IMG/VR virus record: IMGVR_UViG_2645727604_000022
DNA from: a virus
Lineage: Duplodnaviria > Heunggongvirae > Uroviricota > Caudoviricetes
Strand: one strand, 5' to 3'
Length of the DNA stretch: 31,466 nt
The position numbers were made by a program, and so were the translations under genes. The notes below the pieces were generated by a model, which was not told the origin of the DNA, did no database searches, and saw only the letters and a program-made list of their open reading frames with translations. Below are positions 1,336 to 29,857 of this stretch, one piece after another (position 1 is the first letter of the stretch; every line of letters starts with the position of its first letter).

Positions 1336-1342
1336 ACGCAAT

Positions 1343-4227: not shown

Positions 4228-4274
4228 TTAAAAAAAAAATAAAAAAAAGGCGAAGCGTGAATACACGCCACGCC
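4228..4274 (-). terminator. Intrinsic terminator downstream of the 342-aa gene
   Basis: On the minus strand: hairpin AGGCGTGGCGTG-TATT-CACGCTTCGCCT followed by a long U-run (plus-strand A-run 4228-4247). Confidence 0.5.
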
Positions 4275-4293
4275 TCTATTACACGTTAAAATA

Positions 4294-5322
4294 TTATTTA
4301 ACAGTGATTTGAACGGAGAAGCCTACACCGTGGTTTACAACCATCTGGCTATTCTCTGTAACAACGTTAACAGCATCACCACGAGAAGATTCATAGCTGT
4401 AGCTGTACACCTCAGCAGGAGCGGTATTAATCAGTTCAAAAGTGCTGGAAGCCGCCCCATAGATGGCCTGGTAGACGTTAGAGCCTTTAGCGAATTTAGG
4501 CACGGCTACAGCGTCAGCGGTCATATGTGCAAGGTGTAGCGGATCTACCAGTTTAATAACATCAATGTTAGTTCCTGGAATAGTGAACGCTGTCACCCCC
4601 GGTAGCAGGTCACGACGCTGATACACAACGTTTCCCTCTTCCAGTGGGCTTACATACTGGAATGCGTTTGCCATACCAGCAGAGAATCGAATTGCAGAGA
4701 AGGCTTCCGGCTTACAGAAAACAACAATACGCTCTACAGCAGCCGCCTGGCTTTGTGCTTTTTCGATAATGTCAGTAGCAATCTGATCAAATTCTTTAAA
4801 AATCTTCGTGGTGTCAGTGCTGGAAGCGTTCACAGTGGCTTTCATAGCTGATACGTTAAACAGCTTGCCCCATTCGATAAGAACATCATCAGTTTTAGGC
4901 GTGTAAGTTTTACCGCTAAACAGAGATGCAGCCAACACGCTCTCTTTTGTACGCTGATACGCTACGTGGTGTTTAGCAACATAGTCAGCATAGATATCAG
5001 TGAGTGTTTCCTGAAAATCAGTGCCTGGCTTACGTTTGCCTTGAACATCAGAAGGACGGATCACATCTTCACGAAGAAAATACGGGATTTCAATCAGCCA
5101 TTCTTTACCTTGTTCTCGCTTAGTAACATTGTGTTCAGAAGAGAAACGAGAGGTTTCTTTGTTGAACAGAGATTCGTTGCTTTCGACAAGCTGGGAAACA
5201 GCTACTTTATGAGAACTAACGCCCACCGGATCAGTGAAGTCGAGGGTAGAGAGCAGATAGTTTCTAGTGCTATGCGCAGAGAACAAAGGGGCTAAATCAA
5301 CGTAATCATTACCTAGAATCAT
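4294..5322 (-). CDS. Hypothetical protein (342 aa), probably an abundant structural protein (capsid-like guess only)
   Basis: Long ORF; helical N-terminal half and beta-rich C-terminal half; followed by a strong terminator as is common for highly expressed structural genes; no diagnostic motif. Confidence 0.7.
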   Translation of the reverse strand: MILGNDYVDLAPLFSAHSTRNYLLSTLDFTDPVGVSSHKVAVSQLVESNESLFNKETSRFSSEHNVTKREQGKEWLIEIPYFLREDVIRPSDVQGKRKPGTDFQETLTDIYADYVAKHHVAYQRTKESVLAASLFSGKTYTPKTDDVLIEWGKLFNVSAMKATVNASSTDTTKIFKEFDQIATDIIEKAQSQAAAVERIVVFCKPEAFSAIRFSAGMANAFQYVSPLEEGNVVYQRRDLLPGVTAFTIPGTNIDVIKLVDPLHLAHMTADAVAVPKFAKGSNVYQAIYGAASSTFELINTAPAEVYSYSYESSRGDAVNVVTENSQMVVNHGVGFSVQITVK

Positions 5323-5340
5323 TTATTATTATTCCTTTTA

Positions 5341-5703
5341 TTAAGAAGTGAAAACCGTATTAAAGCCTTCAAGCTGGAAGCCTTTTTTAATTAATGCTGT
5401 TTTTGCTGCTTCACTTACAGCATTCAGGGCATCAGCTTTGATGCATACAAGCCCAGCATTGCTACGTAGCACATCTACAGGCTTGTTGTCTCCAGCCGTT
5501 ACAAATTCACTCATAACAACATAGATATCATCTCCTGATTCATATTTAGCGCCAGTGCTGGTGATCAAGTCTCCGCATTCAACATCAGCAGGAAGAGAAG
5601 CAAAAACCTTGCTTTCTACAGAGGCAAACGGATCAGTACAATAAGCCACCAGATCTGTAAACGTCTTTCGACTTGGAAAAAGAGCGTCTAAATCAATAAT
5701 CAT
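5341..5703 (-). CDS. Hypothetical protein (120 aa), immediately upstream of the 342-aa gene
   Basis: Strong SD TAAGGAG 8 nt before ATG; start overlaps the stop of the upstream 70-aa ORF. Confidence 0.6.
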   Translation of the reverse strand: MIIDLDALFPSRKTFTDLVAYCTDPFASVESKVFASLPADVECGDLITSTGAKYESGDDIYVVMSEFVTAGDNKPVDVLRSNAGLVCIKADALNAVSEAAKTALIKKGFQLEGFNTVFTS

Positions 5704-5912
5704 TTAGTAATCTCCTTAGCTTTTAATTTGATTAATTCATTAAGGGAAGGTGTAGACGGAGAAGAAGGAGAAAAATATTTTTCAACACATCTTTCTACTT
5801 CCTCTACAGAACACCCAGCGTATTTAGCTACCATTTCGGTAATTTGTGGATTAATTTTCAGCATTTCATCTTTATACTTGATGATTTGCTCTTTATCATT
5901 TAAGAACAACAT
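5700..5912 (-). CDS. Hypothetical small protein (70 aa) with SPSSPSTPS linker
   Basis: ORF translationally coupled to the next gene; weak SD. Confidence 0.45.
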   Translation of the reverse strand: MLFLNDKEQIIKYKDEMLKINPQITEMVAKYAGCSVEEVERCVEKYFSPSSPSTPSLNELIKLKAKEITK

Positions 5913-6035
5913 TTATATAAACCTTGTTACCTTGTTTAAAGTAAGAAATACAACTTTTAAGTTGCATAACGGGCAAAATAAAAGGCAGCATTTAAAGCCG
6001 CCTTTTATTAACTCATACCTATGTAATTACCCTAT

Positions 6036-6065
6036 GTTATGCATACTCCAAGATGTATGCATAAC
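6036..6065. promoter_or_regulatory. Perfect 11-bp inverted repeat GTTATGCATAC-N8-GTATGCATAAC (candidate operator upstream of the structural-like operon)
   Basis: Read directly from the sequence; lies in the 343-bp gap between the 6256-6621 gene and the 5912 start. Confidence 0.35.
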
Positions 6066-6255
6066 AAAGGAAAAAAGAGGTAATAATGACACTTAAGGAG
6101 GAGGAGAAGCGGGGAGCGGAGATTTTACTCCCCTTTAATGACAGGAAGAATTTTTAATATCGAACCAACAAAGGAAAAATAATCACCCTATATAATTATA
6201 TTAACATACAATAGATGAAATGTCAAGATATTTTACAACTTTTTTGTTGCTTTTT

Positions 6256-6621
6256 TTATTCTTCTGTGATAGCAGCGCCTAAGCGTTGAGCTAGTTCAAC
6301 AAGTCCGTCTCCTACATAGCGAACGTCCGAGTAAATACCTTCTATCCAGTTTGATAGCTCCCATATCTGATCCGCTGTCAGATATGCGTTCTCACTCTTA
6401 CAGAGCATCTCTACACGCTTACAGAGCATCTCAAAGGCATTCACAGCTAAATCCCAGTGTTTAAACGCCTCATTTAGTGCCGCTGGCGTGTTTTCTTTGT
6501 ATGCTTCAAGTTCAGCACGGTTTAAAGGCAGGAGGTAATCATCCTCATAATAATTAATTAGTGAGTAAATTGTGTCATACGTGTTTTTGTTCATATTAAA
6601 AGTCTCCATAGTGATCAACAT
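6256..6621 (-). CDS. Hypothetical protein (121 aa by ORF; likely start at the third Met, 6594)
   Basis: GGAG 9 nt before the ATG at 6594; contains an in-frame 21-bp tandem duplication (EMLCK repeat). Confidence 0.55.
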   Translation of the reverse strand: MLITMETFNMNKNTYDTIYSLINYYEDDYLLPLNRAELEAYKENTPAALNEAFKHWDLAVNAFEMLCKRVEMLCKSENAYLTADQIWELSNWIEGIYSDVRYVGDGLVELAQRLGAAITEE

Positions 6622-7006
6622 TATCCAGAATCTGGAATTCAGGAACTAAATTATTTAGGCCATTGGTGGCGAGATAACCAACGTAGTGATTATAATCTTC
6701 AAATCCTAAAATCTGGTATTTGCGTAAATCAGAGCTATCAACAATATACTCTTTTCTTTTTCTAGGTTTCCAGAATACGCCAGGTGTTGAAGATAAGATT
6801 TCTTGTAATGCGATATATTCATCTCCACAAGGCACAGAGGGAGAATGTTCTATGATCTCTGTTTTCCATTCGCCAGGGGCGCTATTATGCTTGGTGAGCG
6901 TAACTAGCTCTTTAAAGTCTTTACGTCTTAGAATAGATTTAGGTTTACTTAGAAGAGAAGCTGAATCACCGATCTTCTTAACAACATTGTTTTTTCTTTT
7001 TGCCAT
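6596..7006 (-). CDS. Hypothetical protein (136 aa) with basic N-terminus
   Basis: ORF in the minus-strand replication/regulation operon; N-terminus MAKRKNNVVKK. Confidence 0.55.
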   Translation of the reverse strand: MAKRKNNVVKKIGDSASLLSKPKSILRRKDFKELVTLTKHNSAPGEWKTEIIEHSPSVPCGDEYIALQEILSSTPGVFWKPRKRKEYIVDSSDLRKYQILGFEDYNHYVGYLATNGLNNLVPEFQILDNVDHYGDF

Positions 7007-7135
7007 TTATTTTTCCTTTTCTTTTAAAGGAAAACACCCCGAAATATGTTTCTAACGTGAGAAAGAACAATAACCAATACATAGCTACTATCATAATAAT
7101 GTTTTCCTTTTATATTTTAATTACATAGAGAGATT

Positions 7136-7414
7136 TTAGAGAGTGGAATAGATGAATTCTATTTCTTTATCTAGTCTTTTGAGATTGAATGTAGAGAAAG
7201 ATAATTCTTTAATTTCTATAACACCGAAGTTTGATAGCTGTTTAAGCCAGAATTTTAAACCATCTTCAGAGCACCCTGCTCGATGTAACACATCGCTATA
7301 TTTTAGCGGTGTTGGCTTTCCTTTATAGAGGTAAGCAAGTGTTTCGTAGATGCGTTTTCCTGTGTCATTACACTGAATTCTGTCTACTTGATTTTTTACT
7401 AAATATTGAATCAT
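7136..7414 (-). CDS. Hypothetical protein (92 aa)
   Basis: ORF directly downstream of the HTH replication-like gene. Confidence 0.5.
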   Translation of the reverse strand: MIQYLVKNQVDRIQCNDTGKRIYETLAYLYKGKPTPLKYSDVLHRAGCSEDGLKFWLKQLSNFGVIEIKELSFSTFNLKRLDKEIEFIYSTL

Positions 7415-7425
7415 AACCCTCCTTA

Positions 7426-8115
7426 TTAAAATGGAATATCAAAGTCATCATACACATTTGGGTAATTCTTAGAAAAATATGCCTCAATACCATTTGGTAG
7501 CTTTAACCTGTGCTTATAGGCTAACGATGTTGCAAATTCTATAAATGATGCTCCTCCTGTTCTGGTATTCTTCTGCTTGATAATAAGAGATGCAAAATTC
7601 TCTAACACATCCTCCTCATTATCATTAGCTACCTTTTCACTTGATGAAACAGGTGTTTCTTCCGTCTCCCACGGCAAAGGCGCATCCCAATCATCAAGAA
7701 CATCAAAAGAAGGCTGTTTATGGCCTTTAGGTTGTTCCTGTGCTTCTTCTGCCTCAGAAAGATCAGAGAGTGATGATTCTCCTGGGGGAGTAATATGTGC
7801 ATCTGTGAGAGGGAGAGCATTGTAAATCAAAGATGAAATATACGGATCAGGATGTGGGGATGTTTCTAATAATCCCATCTCTTTAAGATCGTTTATCTTA
7901 CGTTTAATTGTTGACGCTGAAGACTTAAAAATCTTAGCTAATGTTTCGTGACTTTCATAACAATTAAGGTTGTTTTCCTGATAACTAAGGAATCGAAAAT
8001 AAAGCACAATATGTAATAGATCTAAATCTTTTCCTTGAGGGAATTTATCAGAATAAATCTTTGATACATTATCAAACGTGTCATAGTGTTTTGTAAAAGT
8101 TAGTTGATTAATCAT
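7426..8115 (-). CDS. Putative replication initiator / replisome-organizer-like HTH protein with SSB-like C-terminal tip (229 aa)
   Basis: HTH-like segment HETLAKIFKSSASTIKRKINDLKEMGLLE, acidic disordered middle, extreme C-terminus YDDFDIPF (E. coli SSB ends DFDDDIPF). Confidence 0.6.
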   Translation of the reverse strand: MINQLTFTKHYDTFDNVSKIYSDKFPQGKDLDLLHIVLYFRFLSYQENNLNCYESHETLAKIFKSSASTIKRKINDLKEMGLLETSPHPDPYISSLIYNALPLTDAHITPPGESSLSDLSEAEEAQEQPKGHKQPSFDVLDDWDAPLPWETEETPVSSSEKVANDNEEDVLENFASLIIKQKNTRTGGASFIEFATSLAYKHRLKLPNGIEAYFSKNYPNVYDDFDIPF

Positions 8116-8166
8116 TAAAAATCTCCTTATAAATCACGCTTAATGCGCTACTAAAGTGAATGAGGA

Positions 8167-8334
8167 TCACTTACCCTTTTTTTGTTTGATGTTCTCTGCT
8201 GCTTCAGTAATGATTTCTAACATCAAATCACTGACCATAATTTGCCTTTTCTTGGCTTCAGCAAATAAAACCTTGAAGATTTCAGGGTCAACGTGTAGGT
8301 AAGTGCGCGGAATTGGTTTCTTAGTTTCGCTCAT
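8167..8334 (-). CDS. Small ribbon-helix-helix-like (CopG/Arc-type) putative regulator, 55 aa; not in the ORF track
   Basis: Hand translation MSETKKPIPRTYLHVDPEIFKVLFAEAKKRQIMVSDLMLEIITEAAENIKQKKGK; SD AAGGAG 7 nt upstream of the ATG at 8334. Confidence 0.45.
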   Translation of the reverse strand: MSETKKPIPRTYLHVDPEIFKVLFAEAKKRQIMVSDLMLEIITEAAENIKQKKGK

Positions 8335-8353
8335 AGTTTTCTCCTTCTATTCT

Positions 8354-8542
8354 TTACTCTGTTTCAGATTCTTTTTCATTTTTTCTTAGTTCATCAATAA
8401 TCTTGAGTGCTTCATTGAAGCAAGCTGCTCGCTCTGGATAACCTCGACTCCTTGCCATATTACGATTCATTACTACTTGATGGCGTGTAAGCTCACCTTT
8501 TTTAAATGCCTCTACGACGTGTTTCGGTGTAAACCATTTCAT
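8354..8542 (-). CDS. Hypothetical small protein (62 aa), first gene of the minus-strand operon
   Basis: ORF with a candidate sigma70 promoter about 100 bp upstream. Confidence 0.45.
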   Translation of the reverse strand: MKWFTPKHVVEAFKKGELTRHQVVMNRNMARSRGYPERAACFNEALKIIDELRKNEKESETE

Positions 8543-8652
8543 AAAAAACTCCTTATTCAGTTAAAAGAAAAAACACCTTGCAAGCCTGACGGCTTCAAAG
8601 TGCATTGATTTTGATTATTTAGAGAAGAATGTTTTCTGTCCCTCTAATACCT

Positions 8653-8681
8653 ATTATTACATATAAAGAAACATTTGTCAA
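8653..8681 (-). promoter_or_regulatory. Candidate sigma70 promoter for the 8542-to-6256 operon
   Basis: On the minus strand TTGACA, 17-bp spacer, AATAAT. Confidence 0.3.
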
Positions 8682-9240
8682 TACCTTTTCACAAAAAATC
8701 TGATCTTTTTCATGCACTTACATTTTTTCTTAGCAATTCGTGCTCTCCTGTGTGGTGCTATTCTTCATTATCCGCTAAAACGCTCTAAAACGCGTTCTAA
8801 CGAGGTTTTGATAAAAGCAATACATTCCCTTATGTAATGGCTGTTTAGCTCGCCAGAGGCTTATTTAAGGGGCTTATTTTGTATTTGTTAGGTATATGAA
8901 AAGGTAATGGTAGATATAAGATAGAGAGTCACTTTATAAAACGCCCTGTAAAGCCCTGTAGTGAGTTTATTATATGTAGGCAATGCGTTTCCATTCCCTA
9001 CCCTGCTTAATGCTATTAGAGAAGCATTTAGACCCCTTATTTTTAATTAATTAAAGTATCCTCTATACATTCCTGTTATGAAACACCTCTGAATCCTTCA
9101 TAAAACACATTATGACGCAAAGAACACTTTTCTAAGGTGATTCCCTTCCTGAATGCTGTTTCTTGCGTCAAAGAGCTACACAGAGCTTATAAAGCTATTA
9201 TTAATAATAAAGTAGATAAGTAAGATAACTAAGATAGATA

Positions 9241-9660
9241 AGATTAATAAGATCAGAATTCTCTTTCGGTGTCGCCTCTGGCTTTTCCACCGAAAACAAT
9301 TACACAACTACAGAGAATAACGAGAGTTATTAAATGTAGAAAGTGGAATTGTATTGAGGCTTAGTGAAATTACACGAGGAAAGCAGAGTGTAATTGAGCT
9401 TTAGCCGCTCTCTCTTCGAGTAATTACACAACTACAGAATGTAGAAGTGGAATTAAGAGTTAGAGTTAACACATAAGCAATCAGTATGATTGGTTAGGTG
9501 ATTACTCTTCTGCGCACAGCGCAATAGATTTCTTCGTGGGCGTTATCGCCAACGAAGTTACACGAAGAAAGTAACGCTTTGCTTTCGGTGTGAGCGGAAC
9601 GGGCCAGCCACGAAGCCCAAAGGTAGCGGAGTAAGGCTGCTTGCCAGAGAGTGAAGCTAA
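9241..9660. other. Structured, relatively GC-richer non-coding block with nested hairpins and TGTGTAAT/AATTACACA motifs (possible regulatory RNA or protein-binding array)
   Basis: Hairpins TTTCGGTG...CACCGAAA, AATTACAC-N12-GTGTAATT, CTTCGTGGGCG-TTAT-CGCCAACGAAG; direct repeats AATTACACAACTACAGA at 9297 and 9422; no ORF of 60 aa or more. Confidence 0.3.
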
Positions 9661-9769
9661 CGCCGGAAGGCAAAAGATCATATATATATATAGATATAAA
9701 GAATATTATTATTATGATCTAATTAATAATCTAATATAGTTTTATTAATAGTCTTATTGTAGTTCACAG

Positions 9770-9845
9770 TGACCTACCCCCTAGCTCACTATGACCTACC
9801 CCCTAGCTCATAGTGAACTACCCCCTAGCTCATAGTGAACTACCG
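9770..9845. repeat. Iteron array: about 3.5 tandem copies of a 22-bp unit TGA(C/A)CTACCCCCTAGCTCA, next to an AT-rich tract (9660-9760); candidate replication origin
   Basis: Units start at 9770, 9792, 9814 and 9836 (22-bp period); the preceding tract is almost pure A/T including ATATATATATATAGATATAAAG. Confidence 0.6.
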
Positions 9846-10318
9846 TTACTACCAATCATCACATAGCACTCTGTGTAATGCCTTTCTATGTGTGTGCCAT
9901 AATCCCCTATATTCCCTGTGTAAATCATAGAATATCCCTAACTTATTCCTGTGTAATTCCATACTAAAAATTCAATGAAAAGTAGCTTAAAAGTGCAATT
10001 CTTACTTTCTTCACTTTTACATCACTTTCGCAAAGCCTTGTGTAGTGCGGCTTACAGAGCACCATCAGAAATTGTTGGCTAAAAATTGTTCTGCTTGTTT
10101 CTGAATGAGTTTTCTCGTTTGTGCAAATTTTAAAATTTATTTTGTTTTTACAGCCTTATTTCGTGTAATGCGTGGCATAGCAAGCCCTTTTCTTGTGTTG
10201 TCAAGACATTTGGCAACGTTCAAACATCTGTTTAGAAATGCCAAATTGTTGATCTAACAAATAAACCTGTATAAACAGAACACTATTTAATCTATTCCCC
10301 TGTGTATCCATTAGGCAT

Positions 10319-10426
10319 ACCAAATGAATACATCTAAATCGTGTAATATTCCGTACCTATAAGGCTTGAAACAGACCAAATGAATACGATATACTCATTT
10401 GCATTGGAGTAGTGCCAAATCGATAC
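10319..10426. promoter_or_regulatory. res-like recombination / autoregulatory site upstream of the serine recombinase gene
   Basis: Three direct copies of ACCAAATGAATAC-like 13-mer (10319, 10375, 10414); the middle one forms a 25-bp palindrome CAAATGAATACGATATACTCATTTG. Confidence 0.45.
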
Positions 10427-10440
10427 ATTAAGGGGATTTT

Positions 10441-10980
10441 ATGAGCAATATCGGTTATAAGCGTGTGAGCACTGTAGATCAGAACACTGATCGCCAGCTT
10501 GCAGGAGTAACGCTTGATAAAGTCTTTGAAGATAAGCTGTCAGGTAAAGACACTAACCGTCCAGGATTGCAGGCGTGTTTATCCTATCTGAGAGAAGGCG
10601 ACACCTTACACGTGCACTCTCTCGACCGTTTAGGGCGTAACACCTTAGACATTCTTGCCTTAGTGGAACAACTTAATAATCGAGGTGTAATTGTTCGATT
10701 TCATAAAGAAGGGATCATTGCAGACATTACAAGCGCGATGGGAAAAATGATGCTTACGATGTTGTCGGCAGTTGCAACGTGTGAACGTGAACTGATGTTA
10801 GAGCGTAAACGAGAAGCGCAAGCCGTCAATCCTACAAAGCGTGGTAATGGAAAAGCAGTAGATAGAGAAGGTATAAAGAAAGCCCTTTCTGATGGCCTGT
10901 CAGTGCGTAAAACCGCCGAGAGCTTTAATGTTGCTCCTTCAACGGTACAGCGAATTAAGAAGGAAGAAGAGGAGGCGTAA
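10441..10980 (+). CDS. Small serine recombinase (resolvase/invertase family), 179 aa
   Basis: N-terminus MSNIGYKRVSTVDQNTDRQ with catalytic-Ser context, FEDKLSGKDTNRPGL and GDTLHVHSLDRLGRN match the Hin/resolvase family pattern; SD AAGGGGA upstream. Confidence 0.9.
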   Translation: MSNIGYKRVSTVDQNTDRQLAGVTLDKVFEDKLSGKDTNRPGLQACLSYLREGDTLHVHSLDRLGRNTLDILALVEQLNNRGVIVRFHKEGIIADITSAMGKMMLTMLSAVATCERELMLERKREAQAVNPTKRGNGKAVDREGIKKALSDGLSVRKTAESFNVAPSTVQRIKKEEEEA

Positions 10981-15522: not shown

Positions 15523-17640
15523 CTAGTCATTATCTGGATCATTAGATAGCCAAGTAATGATGCCCAGTCTGGCGATGGTCCGTTTTTCCTGTTCAGGAAG
15601 AGAGTTAAAAAAACTCTTCCATTGAGGGGAGCGCCTGATACGTGAATCAACAATGTGCCCAGGCGCTTTTCCGTGTAGATTTTTTACTGCGCTCTGGAAG
15701 GCTGGCGAGGCAATTAATTTATCCGCAGCATCAGCCGCCCCTGCTCCACCAGCTAATCGAGCTTTACTCGCCAATCTTGCTCCAATATCAGCCCCAGCAA
15801 TGGCTCCAAGCGATCCAAAATGAGCGCCTACCATCGTGCCTATTTTTTGAATGTGTTTTGCTGCTAGTTCGTATGGAGCTGTTACCCGATTAAATCTGTT
15901 TACAAACTCATTCAGCTTACCAGTAGATATTTCATGCGCTTTAGCATTTTTTATTGCTCTGGCAACTTTGTATACATCATATAGTCCGCTCATTGTTTCT
16001 TTTGGCAAATGTTCAGCCAAAGTCTTTAGCTGTCCACTGTGTTGCAAGTTTTGCCACCAATCTGCAAAGCCAGATGGATTAAAGTCGGCCCCACGCTTCC
16101 CAGAGGAAAGCATATCTCTTAATGCTGTTCCTACTAGCTCCCTTCGCAATGTTCTTGATGGAGTATTTTGCATAATCTCACGAAACCCTCTCGCATCACC
16201 TTTTGCCATAGATTGAAGAGAATTCGTTACTTTATACGCTATATCCCCATTAAGTGTTTTCCCGCGAAGATTTACCATTTGCCTTTCTAAGTTTTTTCTC
16301 ATAGCTACAAGGCGTTGTGCGACTTCGAAATCTCGCAAGTATCCAGTATTGGATAAGACAGATTTTTGGTCTTCAGCTAAAGCTCCATATAGTCTTGATA
16401 GCGCTTCTTTATCAGCATCTTTGTATGGCCCCTGCTTTTTATTTAGGGCATCACCAACTAAACGCCTTTGCCTGTTTAAATTTGCATACGTTAGGATTCT
16501 ATCTGGGCCGGGGTTTATTGCTGTAAAAACTCGCTTTTCTATTGGGTCAAGATTATCCCACCCTCCTAAATCATCAGCGATTTTTTCCAGCATAGTGCTT
16601 GTGTTATTTGCTTCGACTTTTGTTCTTGGTGATAGAGCGGAATCAACACGTTTATATAACTGATCACTACGGTTTTTTAGTGCTTCCATTCTACTATTTA
16701 TCTGATAAATATATTTTTCGCTCATAGCTAACGCATCTGGCGCACCAGCAACATCATCGATTATCTTGCCAGCACTAGAGGCTAATTCGCTTATTGCTTT
16801 ATCTTCTTGAGCTTTTAACGCTGATCCTGTCCGTGACTTTAGGGCTTGCTCTACAGCTTGGTATTGCTCATTTCCTGATAAATGAGAAGGAAGAACTGAA
16901 TCAACATGAAGCCTATTTGCAGCCTCAACAATTTCTTTCTGAGGTTTTAGATCTAGCCCTTCAAGCGAAGAGGCAAGATTTGGGTTGCCTTGTGCAGATA
17001 ACTTACGAATTTTCTCTTCGGCAGGAGTAATCCCCTCAATATCTGGAATCGAAGAAACATTCTTCTTGGTTAATTTCCCAGCTATTTTATTAATTGCAGG
17101 GCCAGCAAGTTCGGCTACAGGGCCAGCCACAGCGCCAATAGCAGCGCCGGAAGCAACATCGCTATTTGTTCCATTGGCTACAATAGCCCCTTCTCCAGCA
17201 CCAAGCCCTGCGGCGGCAGCCAGTCTTGCCGCCCCTTTGGGAACCTGAGAAATAATCCCACCACCACTAACAAATGGCGCTGCTTGTCCAACGAACTCAC
17301 CAACATCTTGTGCGGTTGATGGTTTTGCCGCTAACTTCTGCTGTAGAGACTGAATTGCGGCTTGCTCTTCTGGTGTCATATCCTGAAACAGGCCAACACC
17401 TTTACCAACATCCATCAATCCACTGAGAACGCCATACATAAAACGGTCGAAACCGTTAGCATTATTAACAACATTTTCCTGTCTGGAATTTTCCTCTGGT
17501 GAAACCAAAGGTGATTGCTGCTGTTCTGGTTGGGCATCAAGCACAAAACCATCAGGAAGCTGTGAACTATCAGGAAACTGTGAGTTATCAGGTTGTTCAT
17601 CGAGCACAAAACCTTCCGGTAAGATTACATTTGCTGCCAT
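15523..17640 (-). CDS. Hypothetical large Gly/Ala-rich coiled-coil protein (705 aa), last gene of the LexA-box operon
   Basis: N-terminal repeats PEGFVLDEQP / PDGFVLDAQP, long Gly/Ala zipper segments, no P-loop or nuclease motif found. Confidence 0.75.
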   Translation of the reverse strand: MAANVILPEGFVLDEQPDNSQFPDSSQLPDGFVLDAQPEQQQSPLVSPEENSRQENVVNNANGFDRFMYGVLSGLMDVGKGVGLFQDMTPEEQAAIQSLQQKLAAKPSTAQDVGEFVGQAAPFVSGGGIISQVPKGAARLAAAAGLGAGEGAIVANGTNSDVASGAAIGAVAGPVAELAGPAINKIAGKLTKKNVSSIPDIEGITPAEEKIRKLSAQGNPNLASSLEGLDLKPQKEIVEAANRLHVDSVLPSHLSGNEQYQAVEQALKSRTGSALKAQEDKAISELASSAGKIIDDVAGAPDALAMSEKYIYQINSRMEALKNRSDQLYKRVDSALSPRTKVEANNTSTMLEKIADDLGGWDNLDPIEKRVFTAINPGPDRILTYANLNRQRRLVGDALNKKQGPYKDADKEALSRLYGALAEDQKSVLSNTGYLRDFEVAQRLVAMRKNLERQMVNLRGKTLNGDIAYKVTNSLQSMAKGDARGFREIMQNTPSRTLRRELVGTALRDMLSSGKRGADFNPSGFADWWQNLQHSGQLKTLAEHLPKETMSGLYDVYKVARAIKNAKAHEISTGKLNEFVNRFNRVTAPYELAAKHIQKIGTMVGAHFGSLGAIAGADIGARLASKARLAGGAGAADAADKLIASPAFQSAVKNLHGKAPGHIVDSRIRRSPQWKSFFNSLPEQEKRTIARLGIITWLSNDPDND

Positions 17641-18923
17641 TTTCCGTTCCTGTAAATGATTTTCTGACCAGTTTTAGGGTTGGTTGCCGTTGCGCCTTCT
17701 GATATTCCTCCGGTTGCCGCTTTTGCCTGTCCAGTGCCAGCCTGTGATGTAGGCTGCCCGGAAACATCGTCAAATAGCTTCGCTTTCCTTCTTTCAAGGC
17801 TTTTTCTTAGCCCCTGAGGAATAGTTTCTCCATATGTATCGAGATACTCGTCAACCTGCTGGTTAAACTGCTGCCCCATAGCATTGGCGTTGATTTTTGC
17901 GGCGTTAACAATGTTATCCTTTGCCTCCTGCGACAGGCCGTTTCCAGCATTAAGCTGGTCTATGTATCCTTTGATTTGTCCCCATATGCCATCAGACCGC
18001 ATTACCTGAACCTGTTCGCCTTCACGAACGACTGACTGCGGGTCAAGAGATTTCATGTAGTTGAAGATAATCCCAAGTTGGGCAGCGCCAGTATTTACCT
18101 TGCTAAGGGCTTGCAGAGAGTTTGCCGCCGCTCTGACAGAGTTATAATTTTTGCCAAAATTGGTAATGTCAGAATTTAATCCCTTAATTAAGTCTGCTGA
18201 CGGCTTACCTTTTTGCCCCAGCTCCATTAGCTTCAATCCCATCTCATCTGAGTGAATTTGTGCTCGCTGAGCCCTGTCTAGTTGAGCGTTCTGGATATTT
18301 GCCCATCCTCTCGCGTTCTCCATGTCAGCCTGACGCATACTTTCATCCAGTCGCCCTTGCTCAAGTCGACGACCTTCCATTTGATCTTTGATATCGAAAT
18401 ACTTCTCATGACCGAGAGAAAACAGTGCCATACTACCAGCAAGCCGCTGGAACCCCTGTGGATCATTAACATGCATTTCGGCAACAGACTCAGGAGAAAT
18501 TCCCAAGCGACGCATTTCATCTTCGTTATCTGCTATGAATTTTCCAAATGCCCCAGTTCCGAGCGAAGATGCGATTTGAGCACTAGTCGCAAGATGACCA
18601 ATAGAATTTCTCTGGTCGTCATCAATAAAGCCCATCCCTTTCTGAACGCTTTCAAATTCTTCTGGATACTCAGAAATAAGACTGCGCATTTTGTTTCTGT
18701 CTCCAGACTCAAAAGCCCCGGCATATGCTTTCTGAAACTCTGCTTTACGCTGTTGTTGACGTGCCTGCTGATTAATCTCAGCAACGCCTCTTAGCCCCTG
18801 TAGCGCCATTAAACCTACGTTTGGCTGCTGCTGATACTGCACAGGCTGAGGAACGGAAGAACGAGGAGCATTATCATTTTGCGGTGCCATGCTAGGCAGC
18901 CCGCCAAGTTGCCATGTCGCCAT
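17625..18923 (-). CDS. Hypothetical coiled-coil protein (432 aa)
   Basis: Q-rich N-terminus; overlaps neighbouring genes by a few nt (translational coupling). Confidence 0.75.
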   Translation of the reverse strand: MATWQLGGLPSMAPQNDNAPRSSVPQPVQYQQQPNVGLMALQGLRGVAEINQQARQQQRKAEFQKAYAGAFESGDRNKMRSLISEYPEEFESVQKGMGFIDDDQRNSIGHLATSAQIASSLGTGAFGKFIADNEDEMRRLGISPESVAEMHVNDPQGFQRLAGSMALFSLGHEKYFDIKDQMEGRRLEQGRLDESMRQADMENARGWANIQNAQLDRAQRAQIHSDEMGLKLMELGQKGKPSADLIKGLNSDITNFGKNYNSVRAAANSLQALSKVNTGAAQLGIIFNYMKSLDPQSVVREGEQVQVMRSDGIWGQIKGYIDQLNAGNGLSQEAKDNIVNAAKINANAMGQQFNQQVDEYLDTYGETIPQGLRKSLERRKAKLFDDVSGQPTSQAGTGQAKAATGGISEGATATNPKTGQKIIYRNGKWQQM

Positions 18924-19600
18924 TAGAATCCAAGCCCCCCAACAAGACCAATAAGCCCACCACCAATAGCGCCGGCCGCAGTTCCTATTCCAGGAACAAC
19001 GGAACCAAGTTGCGCACCCGCTAAAGCGCCTGATGCTGCCCCACCAATACCACGCGCAAGACTGGATGGCTGCTGCGCCTGACCTGCACGAATAGCGCCA
19101 AGCCCCTGCAAGAGTTGTCCGGTATTATTGGCGTAGTTTTGCCCTGCCGTTGCCTGCCCTGATGCCGCATTCATCCCGACATTTAGCAGGTTTCCATAAT
19201 TTTGCATTTGCCCACTAAGCCAATTGTTATAAAGCATGGGCGCAATGGAAGATAACTGGTTACTGGTAGCTGTTGAGCCAAGCCCCCCGGTAGCTTCTGC
19301 TGAGACAAGGTTCTGATAACGGGCCTGATCTGCCTGTGTTTTATATAAACCAGAACCAAAGAAATCATTCGCGGCTTTATTCTGCCCTTCCAGAGTCATC
19401 AGTCCTTGTAGTTGTTGTAAAGCAGGCAATCCGACTTCTGCATACGGCTTGAGATTATTCATCACCGTATTCCACTGCTCGCGCTGCAAATCAATTGCCT
19501 GCTGCTGGGCCTTCGCCTGAGCTTTAGAGGCACCACCATCACCGCCTTTTTCGTATACGGCACGATTGAGATGTTTATGAGCTATATGGGTAATTAACAT
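18923..19600 (-). CDS. Hypothetical protein with extremely Gly-rich hydrophobic C-terminus (225 aa)
   Basis: C-terminus GIGGAASGALAGAQLGSVVPGIGTAAGAIGGGLIGLVGGLGF. Confidence 0.7.
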   Translation of the reverse strand: MLITHIAHKHLNRAVYEKGGDGGASKAQAKAQQQAIDLQREQWNTVMNNLKPYAEVGLPALQQLQGLMTLEGQNKAANDFFGSGLYKTQADQARYQNLVSAEATGGLGSTATSNQLSSIAPMLYNNWLSGQMQNYGNLLNVGMNAASGQATAGQNYANNTGQLLQGLGAIRAGQAQQPSSLARGIGGAASGALAGAQLGSVVPGIGTAAGAIGGGLIGLVGGLGF

Positions 19601-20055
19601 TCGCTGAATTCCTTATATTGTTGCCGAGTTAACTGATAAAGCGTTACGCCGACGGGTTTACCACATCTGATATAAGCATCATCAAGGTGACCAACACGGG
19701 TAGCGCCAAGCAAACGGATAATTGCCCGTCCGTATTTCGTGGTGTCAGGAACCATAGTGATGCTGTTAAGGAATGGTGAGTTTTCGAGAAGCCATTTGCA
19801 GAATAATCGATGTCCTTGCAGTGCATATTCACCACGGAATCCGGGGTCGTACACCGCATGGCATTCAACAACGCTATGCCAGAAGTTACGCACTTCATGA
19901 ACGCCAGCCAGCACTAATCCTTCGTAGATGCCGAGATATACCGCATCAGGCTTGATGTAGTACGTGTGCCCCGGCTCAACAATATTTTCGGTATTGCCTG
20001 GCTCGTTAAGAAAGGCCTGTAATCGCACAGGGTTATCAATAAATTTTAGTTCCAT
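19594..20055 (-). CDS. Hypothetical protein (153 aa)
   Basis: ORF coupled to downstream genes; no diagnostic motif (GNAT motif looked for and not found). Confidence 0.7.
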   Translation of the reverse strand: MELKFIDNPVRLQAFLNEPGNTENIVEPGHTYYIKPDAVYLGIYEGLVLAGVHEVRNFWHSVVECHAVYDPGFRGEYALQGHRLFCKWLLENSPFLNSITMVPDTTKYGRAIIRLLGATRVGHLDDAYIRCGKPVGVTLYQLTRQQYKEFSEC

Positions 20056-20071
20056 GCGATGCCATCCATTT

Positions 20072-20233
20072 TCACATACAGCCTGCCAGCGCCTTATCTA
20101 TTAACCCTCGTGCAATTTCATGCAGAGTTGGCGCTACTCCAATTCCTGATTTTTTACGCTGCTCTTCCTGAATTTTCTTTATCGCTTCCATTTGCTTCTC
20201 ACTTATCAATACCGGCTTTACTGAAATAGCCAT
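20072..20233 (-). CDS. Small RHH-like putative regulator (53 aa), first gene of the operon; not in the ORF track
   Basis: Hand translation MAISVKPVLISEKQMEAIKKIQEEQRKKSGIGVAPTLHEIARGLIDKALAGCM; GGGGG 5 nt before ATG. Confidence 0.45.
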   Translation of the reverse strand: MAISVKPVLISEKQMEAIKKIQEEQRKKSGIGVAPTLHEIARGLIDKALAGCM

Positions 20234-20248
20234 AACGCCCCCTTAGAA

Positions 20249-20264
20249 CTGTATAAAACAACAG
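20249..20264. promoter_or_regulatory. LexA-type SOS box CTGTATAAAACAACAG, immediately downstream of a perfect TATAAT (20267-20272, minus strand)
   Basis: Matches CTGT-N8-ACAG with an AT-rich spacer; sits 16-31 bp upstream of the RHH start codon; only such box found in the window. Confidence 0.45.
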
Positions 20265-20678
20265 TTATTATAGTTTCACAAATCGCAATATTCATCATCG
20301 TAATTGCAAAATATGAAACAAATAGCACAAAAAAATGCCACCGCTCAGTAGCTGGTGGCATCGTTCTGTGTGTCAGGTTTTGACAGGTTTTTTATGGACT
20401 CTAAAAACTATATTTATGGTGTCGCATTACTCTTCACGGCAGGCGCTTTTCAGTTCTGCCCTTGCTTCTGGCTCCATTGGTAATTTGATTCGCGATCAGC
20501 TATGCGGATGGTTTGCTGAACAGGCATAACAACTTCTCAGAGGCTGTTTTCTGAACTACGAAAATTTCGTAGTGCTCACTTTCAAAAACGTCACGCCCTT
20601 GTACACAGGATTTTACGAAAGTCTCGTAAAACACTCTCTGATGCCAGCCAGGTGTTGTGCGCATCAATTCAGTCACAT

Positions 20679-20799
20679 TGTGTTGGTTCAAAATACCGTG
20701 TTGTTGGTTCAGTGTTGGTTCAATAAAAAGAATAAAATCCTTATAAAACAATACTCTTTACAAATTGAACCAACTGAACCAACTGAACCAACACCTTTT
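20679..20799. repeat. Iteron cluster IR-R: inverted partner of 13641-13770, 19 bp downstream of the primase-helicase stop
   Basis: Three spaced GTTGGTTCA then TGAACCAACTGAACCAACTGAACCAAC. Confidence 0.65.
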
Positions 20800-20817
20800 C
20801 TACGCACATGAAGAAGC

Positions 20818-23577
20818 TCATTCTTCAGATGAGTTATAATCTCCTGGCTGGTAATTGAGTACATAAACGTTTATTTGTCGTCCCTGAATACGTGGTGATT
20901 TTCTTTGGTATCCACGACCGCTGTTTGGTGGGGTTAGCATCCCGGCTTTTTTCAACACTTCAGCAAACTGTTTTGCGTTGAAACCACATGCGATCTCCTT
21001 TTCAAATGTGGCCGGGAATGTGTAGAAAATCATTGGGCTTTCGTCATGTTCTCCACGCTGACGGTATCCGGCTAAATCTTTGATGGGCAAATCTGCCGGG
21101 CTGTATGGAAATGGTGCAAAACGGCTAAGCCCATAGGCATTAAGAAATGCCTCCGTTTGTTCAATAATCTGCTGATGCTCTTTGTTACCTGTGCCGAACT
21201 CGCGCAACCATGCGTTATAGCTGTGCTGTATCGCATCACGGCATGTCTGAGCATCCCAGCCTGTTACAACCTCGCCTAACAACAATGCGGCCTCCAGAAT
21301 GGCAAATCGCGCGGCTACACGGTGAACCTGCTCACCATAATCGGATGGGATCAGGCTTCTCCATCTGCTTTCGCAGTCACGAACGGTTTTAATAGCCTGT
21401 TGCTGGTGGTCTGCCAGCCATTTAATCCACTCACGCCCGGACGCGCCGTGGTGATGCTGGTAAGCGTCTTTCAGTGCGTCTGCGTGCTGTTTTCCGTTCT
21501 GGTAATCGTGAAAGCGTACTGCTTTACTCAACGGAATATTCAGCAGTCGCACCAGTTGCCCGGCTTTGGTTTTTCGCCCGGAAGTAGCGATAAATGTTTC
21601 TAAATCCATTTCTCCGGTGCTGATTGCCACTGTACGCCAGCGTTTTAGATCCCGGTTTCCACCATCTTTAGCGCCTTGCAGTTTCCCTACACCGTTAAAT
21701 AACGCATAGGCAGACTGTGAGACGCTGACAGGATCAGCGCCCTGACCAACTTCATCAAGCGGCATTAGTCCGTCATTGTGGGCGGCGGCCTCATTTGCCA
21801 GCCCCAGCGCGGTTCCGTACCACGTCAGCCGCAGTAAATCAGGGTTGCCGTATAAGCTGCTCGCCACGTTTGCCGTGGTGGTCTTACCTGCGCTCGACTG
21901 CTCATAGAAATGAATGCCGAACCCGTCAGCGCCCACCAGCCCAATCAATGGCGCTGCCAGTGCTGCGCCGATCCCGGTCATCATTGAATAGTTACCAAAG
22001 GACAGACGCGCCACGTTATCACGCCAGCTTTTCTCGCTCCCTGAGACGGTATATCCGGCTGCGGCTGAGCTTCTCCCGCTGAACAGCACAGGATTTTCAG
22101 GTGTTCCGATGATTTCCCCATCAGGCATGATGTACGCTCCGCATTGCCAGCCAGTGGCATGAGCAACACGCCACAATTCACGAGAGCCACTGCGTTGTAG
22201 CCAGTCTGCCAGTATTGCTCTGAGGCTGCTTTTGGTCGTGACATTTACCCCACCAGCTTTAAGTGTGCGCCATCCTTCACGTTCACCAATATCAGCCAGT
22301 GGAATGGCAGCGGTTGTCGGCGTTTCAGAACCAAACGACAGCCAGCGAAGAATGAGATACTGGTCTTTATCGTCTCTGCCAGTACCGATAACGCTTAACG
22401 GAGAACATAACCAGCTTTCGTTATTGATGATTTCTCCACTCTGGCTGTCAGCTCTCGGAGATACCCAATAAATACCATCCTCGCGGCTTTCTATTCTTGG
22501 TTTCAGTGGATCGGTATCCATAACCTTAAAATCGCTTCCCTCAATGGTCTGTGGCTCCTGTTTCACGCCATTACCCTGTGGTTGGTACATTGACTTATTG
22601 AACGCTTCTGTGGCGCATTTAATGCCGTGTTTTTGGTGGTAATCATTCCAGTCTGCTTTGTGATCTGTCGGGGGTAATGCCACCCATCCAGAAACAGATA
22701 AAGCTGCTTTTTCTGCTGCTATTCTCCCCGTGTTTTGTCTTCCTTCGCTGTGGTCGTTATCCGCAGCAATGATGATTTGTGCTGAAGGAAATTTATCCCG
22801 CAGTACCTGGGCGACATATAACAGGTTCCCGGCATCAATCGCCGCCACTGTCAGCGCCTCTGGACGCATTAAATGGGCAGATAATGCCGTTGCCAGCCCT
22901 TCTGCGATTAAGATGCTCTGTGTTGTTTCTGGTGCGTTTATGGCGTGATATGCCCCTCGCTTTGCTGAACCTGTCAGGAGTCTTTTTTCACCATGTGAGG
23001 TAATAGTCTGTGCTGCTGTTACTGCGCCGGATTTATCCACCAGCGCCAGCAACAGAGATCCATCGGGCAACACGGGGAATGTAAAATCACCTACCCCTTT
23101 CGCAACCAGATAATCAGATTTGCCGTTTACAGCCTTTCTGCGCATGTCATCAAACTGACGGGAAAACGTATCCCGTCTTTGTTGTTCGTCCTTCTCTGCC
23201 CTTTTCAGGCGCTCCTGTTCGCGTCGCTGGCGCTCGGTTTCCAGTTGTTCCCGTTTCTGGCTGGTGGCTTCTGGTGTTTCCGTTGTCCGGTAATCAATAC
23301 CCAGAACATCAGCGGCAAGAAGCGCCGCCTCTGTTGTGTCGCAGTTATTTACGCGTTTAATTAAATCCAGCCCATCACCAGCGCCGCACTGATTACAGAT
23401 GAAGCTACCGCGCCCGTTGTCATCGAACCGGAATCGATCTTTGCCCCCACATGCAGGGCAGGGAGCATGACGGCGCGGAGAGTCAGGGACATTTATGTTC
23501 AGGCAGCCCAGCACATGAGGCCAGTTGTTTTCAGACGCACTGATAACCTGACGGATAAGATCAATGTTTCGCATCAC
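20818..23577 (-). CDS. P4 alpha-like primase-helicase (919 aa)
   Basis: N-terminal zinc-ribbon CPACGG...CNQCG, P-loop YEQSSAGKTTT; size and context typical of satellite/island replication proteins. Confidence 0.85.
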   Translation of the reverse strand: MMRNIDLIRQVISASENNWPHVLGCLNINVPDSPRRHAPCPACGGKDRFRFDDNGRGSFICNQCGAGDGLDLIKRVNNCDTTEAALLAADVLGIDYRTTETPEATSQKREQLETERQRREQERLKRAEKDEQQRRDTFSRQFDDMRRKAVNGKSDYLVAKGVGDFTFPVLPDGSLLLALVDKSGAVTAAQTITSHGEKRLLTGSAKRGAYHAINAPETTQSILIAEGLATALSAHLMRPEALTVAAIDAGNLLYVAQVLRDKFPSAQIIIAADNDHSEGRQNTGRIAAEKAALSVSGWVALPPTDHKADWNDYHQKHGIKCATEAFNKSMYQPQGNGVKQEPQTIEGSDFKVMDTDPLKPRIESREDGIYWVSPRADSQSGEIINNESWLCSPLSVIGTGRDDKDQYLILRWLSFGSETPTTAAIPLADIGEREGWRTLKAGGVNVTTKSSLRAILADWLQRSGSRELWRVAHATGWQCGAYIMPDGEIIGTPENPVLFSGRSSAAAGYTVSGSEKSWRDNVARLSFGNYSMMTGIGAALAAPLIGLVGADGFGIHFYEQSSAGKTTTANVASSLYGNPDLLRLTWYGTALGLANEAAAHNDGLMPLDEVGQGADPVSVSQSAYALFNGVGKLQGAKDGGNRDLKRWRTVAISTGEMDLETFIATSGRKTKAGQLVRLLNIPLSKAVRFHDYQNGKQHADALKDAYQHHHGASGREWIKWLADHQQQAIKTVRDCESRWRSLIPSDYGEQVHRVAARFAILEAALLLGEVVTGWDAQTCRDAIQHSYNAWLREFGTGNKEHQQIIEQTEAFLNAYGLSRFAPFPYSPADLPIKDLAGYRQRGEHDESPMIFYTFPATFEKEIACGFNAKQFAEVLKKAGMLTPPNSGRGYQRKSPRIQGRQINVYVLNYQPGDYNSSEE

Positions 23578-27579: not shown

Positions 27580-28011
27580 TTAGGCGGCGTTAAACGCGTC
27601 CGGGTAGAGTTTCAGAATGTCGGCAATTTCCTGCTGAGAAAGTCCGTTGTGATCATTTATGTTCGCAAGATGGTTAATATGAGTGATCACTTTCAGAACA
27701 TCACCACGGCAGGAGAAACGGTAGCGAAGGTGTGTTCCGATACCATCAGGATTCTTTTCGTCGATACGCTCCAGAGTGATTCCAAGCTGGCGTTCTAACT
27801 CTGTTGCATAGTTACGACCAGAAGACAGACGGCAGTAGCGAAGAATGTCATTTTCTGTCCATCCCTCTATACCAGTACGCAGCATATAGACTCTGGCACG
27901 ATGCTTTTTCGGTGTGCGCTTTGGTGCTTGAAGGGATTTTGTAAGGGGCGTAACATCAGATACACGAATATCTGAATTAGCCGCCTGTAATGGGCGGTTT
28001 TTCTTTTCCAT
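27580..28011 (-). CDS. Hypothetical putative DNA-binding protein (143 aa)
   Basis: ORF coupled to alpA (ATGA overlap); basic N-terminus, HTH-like segment RLSSGRNYATELERQLGITL. Confidence 0.5.
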   Translation of the reverse strand: MEKKNRPLQAANSDIRVSDVTPLTKSLQAPKRTPKKHRARVYMLRTGIEGWTENDILRYCRLSSGRNYATELERQLGITLERIDEKNPDGIGTHLRYRFSCRGDVLKVITHINHLANINDHNGLSQQEIADILKLYPDAFNAA

Positions 28012-28214
28012 CAGGCCACCTCGTCTCTAGATTCTAATATACACTTCTCAATCCATTCATCTATTTCAGACTCAACAAAAGCAATTGCCCGACTTCCAAT
28101 TTTTACCTGTTTAGGGAACCTCCCCTGACTAATAAGACGATAAATCCATGCTTTGCTATAACCAGTTCGCCTTTGAACTTCAGAGAGACGAATTAATGAA
28201 TTGTAATTAGCCAT
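28011..28214 (-). CDS. alpA: AlpA-family excisionase / transcriptional regulator (67 aa)
   Basis: LIRLSEVQRRTGYSKAWIYRLISQGRFPKQVKIGSRAIAFVESEIDEWI matches the AlpA pattern. Confidence 0.8.
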   Translation of the reverse strand: MANYNSLIRLSEVQRRTGYSKAWIYRLISQGRFPKQVKIGSRAIAFVESEIDEWIEKCILESRDEVA

Positions 28215-28499: not shown

Positions 28500-28642
28500 A
28501 CGTAGAAGGCTCAATACACCTTCGTTTATAAAAGAGCGATTGCCCTTCTCCAGGGCTAACTGTTAAATAGCAATCCTCTGTGAGTTTTTATCAATCTACT
28601 CCCCTATACTTTAGTAAACCTCTGTATACTTGTCCAGTTGTT

Positions 28643-29857
28643 TCATGCGTGTTTTTCAAACACCATATGCACCACATTTCCGCCATGCTCGAGAGAATCC
28701 ATATAGTCGGCATACCATTGAAGCATCTCCCGCCTTCCATCCAGATATTGCGCATGGTTGTATGTGCCACGAATTGAGTTCTTATCAACGTGAGCGAGCT
28801 GCGTTTCTATCCACGCGGTGTTATAGCCCTGCTCATGCAAAATCGTACTCATAGTGTGCCGGAACCCATGACCAGTTACACGTCCAGCGTAGCCAATGCG
28901 CTTAAACACTTGGTTTATGCTGGCCTCACTCATTGTTTTCCTTGGATCATTGCGCCCGGGAAACATAAGAGGGTAATTGCCTGTTATTTCTCTAATCTTC
29001 CCAATAAGCGAAAGAGCCTGATCAGACAATGGCACAATATGAGGCCGCCGCATTTTCATACGTGAAGCGGGTATCTCCCAGATAGCCTTGTTGAAATCAA
29101 TTTCATCCCATAATGCGCCACGTAGTTCGCCAGTCCGCAAGCCGGTGATAATCAGTAGACGAGCCGCCATAACAACCAATGCGCTTCCTGAGTAACTGGA
29201 CAATGCCTTGAAAAAATCAGGTAATTCTTTAGCTGTAAGGAAAGGGTAATGATTAGATTCATGGCCTTGCATCGCGCTAGTAAGGTCTGGTGCAGGGTTA
29301 TACTCTGCGCGACCAGTGACTATTGCATAGCGGAAAACTTCCCCGCACCGCTGCCTCACTTTTTTGGCTTTTTCTGTAGCACCGCGCCCCTCGATGCGCC
29401 GCAGCACATTCAGAAGTTCAAGTGGTTTGATTTCGGCGATTGGTTTTTTGCCAATGTAAGGGAACACATCTTTGTTGAAGGCTTCGAGGATGTCTGAAGC
29501 ATAACCAGCAGACCATTTTTTTAATTTGCTGCTGTGCCACTCAAGGGCAATATCTTTGAAGGTGTTGTTTAACTGCGTTTCCCGGGCAATCTTTTCCTCT
29601 CGTTTCGCTTCCATCGGATCGATACCACCAGCGATACCTCTTTTCGCATCTTCACGTTTTGCCCGAGCATCGGCTAGAGTAACCTCAGGATACACACCTA
29701 GTGCCAATAGCTTCTCTTTACCAGCTACACGATATTTAAGTCGCCAGTATTTACCTCCATTAGGTTTTACCAAGAGATACAAACCGCCACCATCGGCCAG
29801 CTTGTAAGCCTTCTCTTTTGGCTTGGCTGTGTCTATTTGACGGGCATTGAGTTTCAC
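28643..29857 (-). CDS. int: P4-type tyrosine integrase (404 aa)
   Basis: N-terminus MKLNARQIDTAKPKEKAYKLADGGGLYLLVKPNGGKYWRLKYR typical of tRNA-targeting P4-like integrases; catalytic HGFRHT and Tyr region near the C-terminus; adjacent to tRNA. Confidence 0.9.
   Translation of the reverse strand: MKLNARQIDTAKPKEKAYKLADGGGLYLLVKPNGGKYWRLKYRVAGKEKLLALGVYPEVTLADARAKREDAKRGIAGGIDPMEAKREEKIARETQLNNTFKDIALEWHSSKLKKWSAGYASDILEAFNKDVFPYIGKKPIAEIKPLELLNVLRRIEGRGATEKAKKVRQRCGEVFRYAIVTGRAEYNPAPDLTSAMQGHESNHYPFLTAKELPDFFKALSSYSGSALVVMAARLLIITGLRTGELRGALWDEIDFNKAIWEIPASRMKMRRPHIVPLSDQALSLIGKIREITGNYPLMFPGRNDPRKTMSEASINQVFKRIGYAGRVTGHGFRHTMSTILHEQGYNTAWIETQLAHVDKNSIRGTYNHAQYLDGRREMLQWYADYMDSLEHGGNVVHMVFEKHA

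Follow-up and report, generated by a model that had tools for sequence, protein, structure and literature searches.

Does host LexA directly control an operon of a phage satellite in Escherichia coli? In Gram-negative phage-inducible chromosomal islands (PICIs) the known switch is AlpA, which is turned on by the helper phage, and to our knowledge direct control of satellites by host LexA has been shown only in staphylococcal islands. The question is raised by one palindrome, CTGTATAAAACAACAG, at positions 20249–20264 of the window, as we call the whole 31,466-nucleotide stretch of DNA analyzed here. Judging from its strength, its position and the conservation of its half-sites, this palindrome is probably a LexA operator. 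It would lie on the sigma-70 promoter that serves the post-primase operon in an EcCIMP1-like PICI.

The satellite and its LexA-type box

The window comes from the proA/tRNA-Thr locus of E. coli and contains two tandem islands. The island that carries the box is an EcCIMP1-like PICI at tRNA-Thr. It has an integrase at a tRNA att site, AlpA, and a primase with an adjacent origin, and it agrees with the general plan of such islands, which lack a complete set of phage structural or lysis genes and measure about 17–20 kb. An AntA/AntB protein, DUF4222 and Ash are also encoded. The features of the island outside the operon of interest are as follows.

28643–29857: integrase
28011–28214: AlpA (Pfam 7e-20)
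20818–23577, minus strand: primase with zinc ribbon, Toprim and DUF927 domains, its stop at 20818
20680–20794, no strand: origin-like iterons, three copies of GTTGGTTCA facing three of TGAACCAAC, with an AT-rich core, just past the primase gene
20614–20628 and 20557–20571: 15-nt palindromes of the TACGAAAATTTCGTA type

The iteron array consists of six 9-bp iterons in inverted groups and looks like a replication origin. An Rfam search of 20000–20900 returned only spurious miRNA-like matches on the inverted iterons. The two 15-nt palindromes, TACGAAAATTTCGTA and TACGAAAGTCTCGTA, are 57 nt apart and lie between the origin and the terminator described below. The second tandem island, at 1–10980 of the window, has its own integrase (1–1335), a Dit-like tail protein (1417–2130), a 608-aa protein, an E-type major capsid protein (4294–5322) and a resolvase (10441–10980); it is possibly a satellite that forms capsids, or else what remains of a prophage.

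EcCIMP1 is a PICI of E. coli MP1 that is mobilized by the P22-like phage Kapi1 (Pick, Stadel, Raivio 2025; PMC11773190). The window island resembles it in its integration at tRNA-Thr next to proA, in its gene order and in the 53-aa first protein of the operon, which is identical in the two elements (one RefSeq entry); the two are unlike in their last cargo gene and at the accessory end. Helper-dependent excision and transfer have been established for EcCIMP1 with Kapi1, not for the copy in the window (PMC11773190). The same layout is shared by EcCIMP1 and by the islands of strains RM10386 and cq9. The accessory end varies among copies, with a PerC-type regulator located there in cq9, RM10386 and MP1. 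Among 5426 complete E. coli genomes, about 330 have most of the box region.

The sequence-only reading had claimed a single LexA-type box in the window and had proposed scoring it against a LexA position weight matrix. The palindrome is indeed the sole match to CTGT-N8-ACAG in 31.5 kb. Its spacer is AT-rich, and the extended arms AACTGT...ACAGTT of the 20-mer are likewise symmetric. The bare pattern alone carries little weight, as at least one match turns up in 26 of 100 shuffles of the window (expectation, 0.32 per window); the looser pattern CTG-N10-CAG occurs 10 times against 6.6 expected. The score of the full 20-mer, AACTGTATAAAACAACAGTT, was more informative. On an E. coli LexA matrix built from 28 literature sites, not from a curated file, it reached 19.4 bits, a score that would place it about 15th among these training sites and thus mid-range for real sites. 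The list of sites reportedly goes back to Lewis in 1994 and Fernandez de Henestrosa in 2000. Its heterology index, 4.85, is likewise one that real E. coli sites show. The 20-mer is the best LexA match in the window, 5 bits ahead of the next, and its score was reached in just 2 of 1000 windows simulated with a first-order Markov model (0.2%) and by no site in 2 Mb of random sequence at the composition of the 40% GC intergenic region. When the corresponding locus of strain cq9 (L001) was scanned with the same matrix, the known dinD SOS box ranked first and the 20-mer second. The dinD site is among the 28 training sites, so this control validates the sequence listed for that site more than it does the matrix.

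The next-best LexA-like site in the window, at 28620–28639, scores 14.1 bits. Its counterpart in EcCIMP1 is weaker still, at 11.9 bits, and the claim of a single box therefore holds. We considered this site as a second operator and rejected it on account of these scores and since no gene lies behind it; a published alpA reporter that contains the site was also unresponsive to mitomycin without helper. The site sits 3 nt past the integrase stop and may be the decayed remnant of a box. Elsewhere, a 16.2-bit LexA-like sequence, CCCTGTATGCAAATCCAGCA, lies within the gp20-like gene of related islands (L001:18055, L002:27693) and is not in the window. It belongs to the commonest allele of the island and recurs 15 times among the fetched loci; in coding sequence, it is probably a chance match carried by descent.

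Promoter, operon and flanking sequence

All genes around the box are on the minus strand. The elements listed here run from upstream to downstream in the direction of transcription; the −10 hexamer, the −35-like element and the Shine-Dalgarno were read directly from the sequence.

20329–20360, minus strand: intrinsic terminator, a GC-rich hairpin (about 20337–20359) followed by T7, which closes the primase operon and insulates the promoter of the RHH-like gene
20303–20319, no strand: O1, an operator-like 17-bp palindrome of the TTKCR-N5-TGMAA type, 30 bp upstream of O2
20290–20295, minus strand: weak −35-like ATGAAT with 3/6 consensus matches and a 17-nt spacer
20273–20289, no strand: O2, an operator-like 17-bp palindrome of the same type, forming an inverted pair and filling the −35/−10 spacer exactly
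20267–20272, minus strand: perfect −10 hexamer TATAAT, 2 nt upstream of the box
20247–20266, no strand: LexA-type SOS box, the 20-mer AACTGTATAAAACAACAGTT, identified by its unique pattern, matrix score and core invariance
20238–20242, minus strand: Shine-Dalgarno GGGGG, 4 nt ahead of the ATG at 20233
20072–20233, minus strand: 53-aa first gene, RHH-like by its strand-helix-helix pattern, fold unconfirmed
19594–20055, minus strand: DUF2824, P22 gp14-like (Pfam 1.5e-61; 84% identical to Kapi1_055)
18923–19600, minus strand: P22 gp7-type ejection protein (Pfam P22_gp7 6.6e-73)
17625–18923, minus strand: P22 gp20-type ejection protein (Pfam Inj_translocase 6.1e-48)
15523–17640, minus strand: DNA transfer protein of 705 aa in the gp16 position (phrog_6704 and phrog_770, 'DNA transfer protein')

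Starting 2 nt past TATAAT and lying 16 nt ahead of the first gene's ATG, the box covers the expected start site, which is predicted about 7 nt beyond the hexamer. Both the promoter and the start site are predicted, not mapped, positions. This placement agrees with the sequence-only reading, which had put the box exactly at the predicted transcription start of an RHH-led operon, and a tightly packed operon does follow: three junctions among the five genes overlap, and a 16-nt gap comes after the first gene. Identities of the four cargo proteins to Kapi1_055–058 are 84, 58, 66 and 41%, and the gene order is the same in both. A consensus promoter scan called no promoter near the box on either strand; it missed the predicted operon promoter because the −35 element matches only 3/6 positions. 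The promoter lies about 55 nt beyond the terminator of the primase operon, and this terminator directly upstream rules out simple readthrough into the operon from the AlpA-controlled early operon.

We fetched EcCIMP1 from the MP1 chromosome and compared it with the window over this region. From O1 through the leader, including TATAAT and the box, the two are identical. Between the terminator and the leader only two bases differ, both upstream of O1 and one of them in the terminator loop. The O1 and O2 palindromes are conserved from Escherichia to Pantoea. On sequence grounds they are likely an operator pair for a second regulator, perhaps the 53-aa protein, and this regulator could dominate. 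The genome of the helper-type phage Kapi1 yielded neither LexA boxes nor O1/O2-like operators: its best LexA score was 8.0 bits, and its only palindrome matches fell outside regulatory regions.

For the first gene, the label 'RHH' is compatible with the data and no more. An AlphaFold2 model of the 53-aa protein (pLDDT 76) shows two helices after an extended N-terminus, and this predicted order of extended segment, helix and helix is compatible with a ribbon-helix-helix monomer. On the other hand, no significant match to an RHH (Arc/MetJ/CopG) family was found in sequence or fold. The protein had no match in Pfam or PHROGs, its best values in a PDB profile search (E = 1.2) and in Foldseek (E = 8) were not significant, hhalign against CopG gave a probability of 1%, and no similarity to the Arc proteins of Kapi1 was detected. 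The family of this protein is confined to Enterobacterales, and its N-terminal SVKPVLL segment is conserved as strongly as O1 and O2.

Because the box is palindromic, the sequence-only reading had also suggested that it could gate the divergent side (20335–20500), with a terminator-like hairpin and a 29-codon open reading frame (ORF) for a hydrophobic peptide. The hairpin and the ORF (20395–20484, plus strand) are both present in the sequence, a weak plus-strand TTAGAA-17 nt-TATTAT can be read around the symmetric box, and most close copies have kept the ORF whole. The regulatory claim built on them did not survive, and we now consider divergent gating very improbable. The run of seven T that follows the hairpin is found on the minus strand only, and the hairpin therefore terminates the primase operon, which shares its strand with the operon of the RHH-like gene. 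The ORF has no Shine-Dalgarno, 8/45 close copies carry it in truncated form or not at all, and the changes observed in it are nearly all non-synonymous. Among close relatives the divergent stretch carries indels that are not multiples of three, and across genera there is no similarity upstream of the terminator. Nothing is annotated in this stretch in three RefSeq genomes, and Rfam finds nothing in it. A 64-aa plus-strand ORF at 20335–20529 was likewise discarded, as its start falls within the terminator and several copies have frameshifts in it.

Conservation of the box across satellite lineages

Three sets of promoters were collected: one via the 53-aa protein with one genome per species (18 loci, 13 genera), one via the same protein in IMG/VR (49 loci), and one via the O1/O2/−10 pattern in metagenomes and IMG/VR (81 loci). 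The architecture was kept throughout, with the terminator followed by O1, O2, a TATAAT-like −10 and then CTGTAT, but the box itself was not. Among 19 aligned promoters from 13 genera, TATAAT was present in most (variants such as TAAAAT and TATACT were found in five), and CTGTAT right after the −10 was nearly invariant.

The 66 distinct promoter haplotypes comprised 26 with CTG-N10-CAG, 36 with CTG-N9-CAG and 4 with neither. The N9 form, which is one base short, occupies the same position in 36/66 haplotypes and in most genera (CTGTATAAATATCAGG), including Klebsiella, Raoultella, Enterobacter, Cedecea and several Serratia and Pantoea. Its scores run only from about −0.4 to 9 bits (CTGTATAAATATCAGGRGG), and its CAGGAGG doubles as the Shine-Dalgarno; a one-base insertion would turn this common form into a strong box. 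Since most other genera carry CTG-N9-CAG, which LexA should not bind, the predicted LexA control is lineage-specific and not universal in the satellite family. CTGTAT is kept after the −10 even in the N9 forms, and there is therefore some reason other than LexA for its presence.

The N10 alleles were of four kinds: CTGTTGTTTTATACAG in Escherichia (18–21 bits), CTGTATCGTTATACAG in Leclercia-like elements (five haplotypes, 12.5–17 bits), CTGTATAAAATAACAG in Lonsdalea-like elements (three haplotypes, 20 bits) and CTGTATAAATAAACAG in Pantoea coffeiphila (20.5 bits). Across these four alleles CTGT and ACAG are constant while 8/8 spacer columns and every flanking column vary, although the N10 class was sorted by CTG and CAG themselves, so that only core positions 4 and 13 provide an independent test. 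A clade defined by protein alone, which is free of this circularity (RHH-like protein at least 82% identical to that of the window) has CTGT-N8-ACAG in all members but L005, which has lost both half-sites. Among the 29 Escherichia-type haplotypes, 0/16 box columns were variable versus 20/51 free intergenic columns, the latter being the remaining intergenic columns not fixed by the search pattern (one-sided Fisher p = 0.0013, an optimistic value given that the haplotypes are related). In the N9 class, CTGT changes occur sporadically (CTTCAT, CTGTGT, TTGTAT), as expected if LexA imposes no constraint there; no such change was found in any N10 haplotype.

These patterns bear on two other explanations of the palindrome. 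It could be a chance match with no regulatory role, and AT-rich promoters are prone to matches of the bare pattern, which the shuffles described above recovered in 26% of cases. We find this highly unlikely, given that the score of the full 20-mer arose in so few simulated windows, that the core is invariant in 29 haplotypes whose neighboring columns vary, and that the box sits right on the −10/+1 of a promoter that is itself conserved. A better account, though still an unlikely one, takes the box to be the local version of a family-wide element after the −10 (CTGTAT...CAGG) that is conserved for a reason other than LexA, with the fit to LexA as a by-product. Such an element could serve as start-site, 5' leader or ribosome-binding context, or it could be bound by the RHH-like protein or by a satellite or helper factor. 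The near invariance of CTGTAT in the 19 promoters favors this explanation, as do the low scores of the commonest form and the Shine-Dalgarno embedded in it; moreover, the whole promoter is conserved, including O1 and O2, and conservation of the box region is thus not specific. What it does not readily explain is the long-leader clade, in which the box stands apart from the Shine-Dalgarno and the half-sites are held at exactly N8 while the spacer and flanks change. The restriction of CTGT changes to the N9 class also speaks against it, and scores of 18–21 bits in three or four lineages would be unexpected by accident. Overall, a working LexA operator is most likely in the Escherichia type, in agreement with the strength of the box, its place over the start site and conservation that is specific to the half-sites.

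A predicted LexA switch among known systems and related cassettes

The SOS boxes of E. coli chromosomal and colicin genes (dinD, umuDC, cea) have the form CTGT-N8-ACAG with an AT-rich spacer. As in colicin-type SOS promoters, the window box lies at or just after the −10 and scores within the range of verified sites. It differs from the chromosomal and colicin boxes in that it is single, of middling strength, located on a mobile element and accompanied by two operator-like palindromes. LexA switches are also found in temperate phages and satellites of Gram-negative bacteria, at the tum promoter of coliphage 186, the Gifsy antirepressors and PrstA of CTX phage. There, as proposed here, a mobile element uses host LexA to sense DNA damage. 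However, the sites in 186, Gifsy and CTX govern antirepressors or early lytic promoters and thus the induction decision, whereas in the window the predicted targets are virion-internal proteins, and induction is decided through alpA, which depends on the helper.

[quoted passage not shown] It too is a satellite operon that follows the replication module, has its own promoter and acts on helper virions; host LexA represses it directly, and its induction by SOS is independent of the satellite master regulator. LexA control was reportedly shown by experiment for operon I and is predicted in the window. The two also differ in host, which is Gram-positive for the SaPIs, in the LexA motif, which is of the CGAAC-N4-GTTCG type there, and in cargo, with a small terminase and capsid-size remodelling genes in operon I and ejection proteins in the window. 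The window has an architecture of the operon I type (a post-replication promoter, a box and helper-virion genes), and its genes have no homology to SaPI genes. The Tai tail-assembly-interference system (PMC11364771) was also considered and is unrelated. An SOS box on a mobile-element operon is of a known kind, and the EcCIMP1 family has previously been described without this feature.

Related satellites place the operon in a broader setting. The cassette head, consisting of the promoter and the RHH-like gene after the primase, is conserved, and the cargo changes with lineage but in every case is a genome-delivery protein. The cargo types comprise the P22-type set gp14/7/20/16, a set of gp20 and gp16 alone, T7-type internal virion proteins that include a transglycosylase domain, tape-measure proteins, and a baseplate hub (compared regions: window 15523–20233, and L005, L006, L008, L010, L011, L013, L014, L017 and L051 at about 4000–8000). 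This variation suggests an injection apparatus that is supplied by the satellites themselves and suited to the type of helper. A literature search for satellites with lineage-swapped injection cargo found no paper.

The scan with the LexA matrix covered all 1.2 Mb of fetched DNA and revealed further boxes. Tandem LexA-type boxes, 22 nt apart and colicin-like, lie at L084:4782–4823 (20.9–23.7 and 16.3–19.0 bits across copies), and the same pair occurs at L080:1986–2027, L052:262–303 and L070:359–400. The pair precedes a cassette of 349-aa and 169-aa membrane proteins that match A and B of the PADLOC candidate defence system PDC-M18; in Klebsiella-type satellites this cassette is inserted between the SSB gene and the RHH promoter. 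A single strong box, GACTGTATGAATAGACAGTA (20 bits), is found just past the integrase stop at L080:8568–8587, L028:2090 and L061:12096, about 45 nt ahead of a 337-aa gene. The site at 28620–28639 of the window occupies the same slot. The presence of strong SOS-type boxes before cargo genes in related satellites indicates that this predicted LexA wiring recurs in the family. A wider proposal, which we advance tentatively and hold to be somewhat doubtful, is that a conserved cassette of Enterobacterales satellites (terminator, two palindromic operators, TATAAT and the small RHH-like gene) drives interchangeable delivery proteins matched to the helper morphotype and re-equips helper virions, with several lineages having independently brought it and neighboring defence cargo under direct LexA control. 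If it is true, host SOS, not helper late-gene control, would time the cassette and the neighboring defence cargo.

For the window and EcCIMP1, we infer the following course of events. In an undamaged cell, a LexA dimer on the box would block RNA polymerase. Upon DNA damage, active RecA would promote self-cleavage of LexA and the operon would be released. This release would coincide with the induction of an SOS-inducible P22-like helper prophage, so that the satellite's own ejection proteins could be available during assembly of helper procapsids. O1 and O2 may add a second layer of control, possibly through the RHH-like protein itself. One published result weighs against a LexA switch: without helper, neither alpA nor excision responded to mitomycin C (Pick et al.; PMC11773190). 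Both lie outside this operon. The word LexA occurs nowhere in the EcCIMP1 paper (PMC11773190), which makes no mention of the box or of this promoter either, and an RNA-seq paper on MP1 has no SOS condition among its conditions. Our literature search for ChIP, EMSA or SOS transcriptome data from a strain that carries the element found none.

EcCIMP1 and Kapi1 form an established laboratory system with lux reporters, in which the prediction could be tested quickly. Should the box be functional, DNA damage would free the ejection-protein operon of the EcCIMP1 family through a second input, independent of the helper. This input would help to explain how a satellite with no recognizable packaging genes prepares for transfer, and it may also explain the effect of the satellite on superinfection by the helper.
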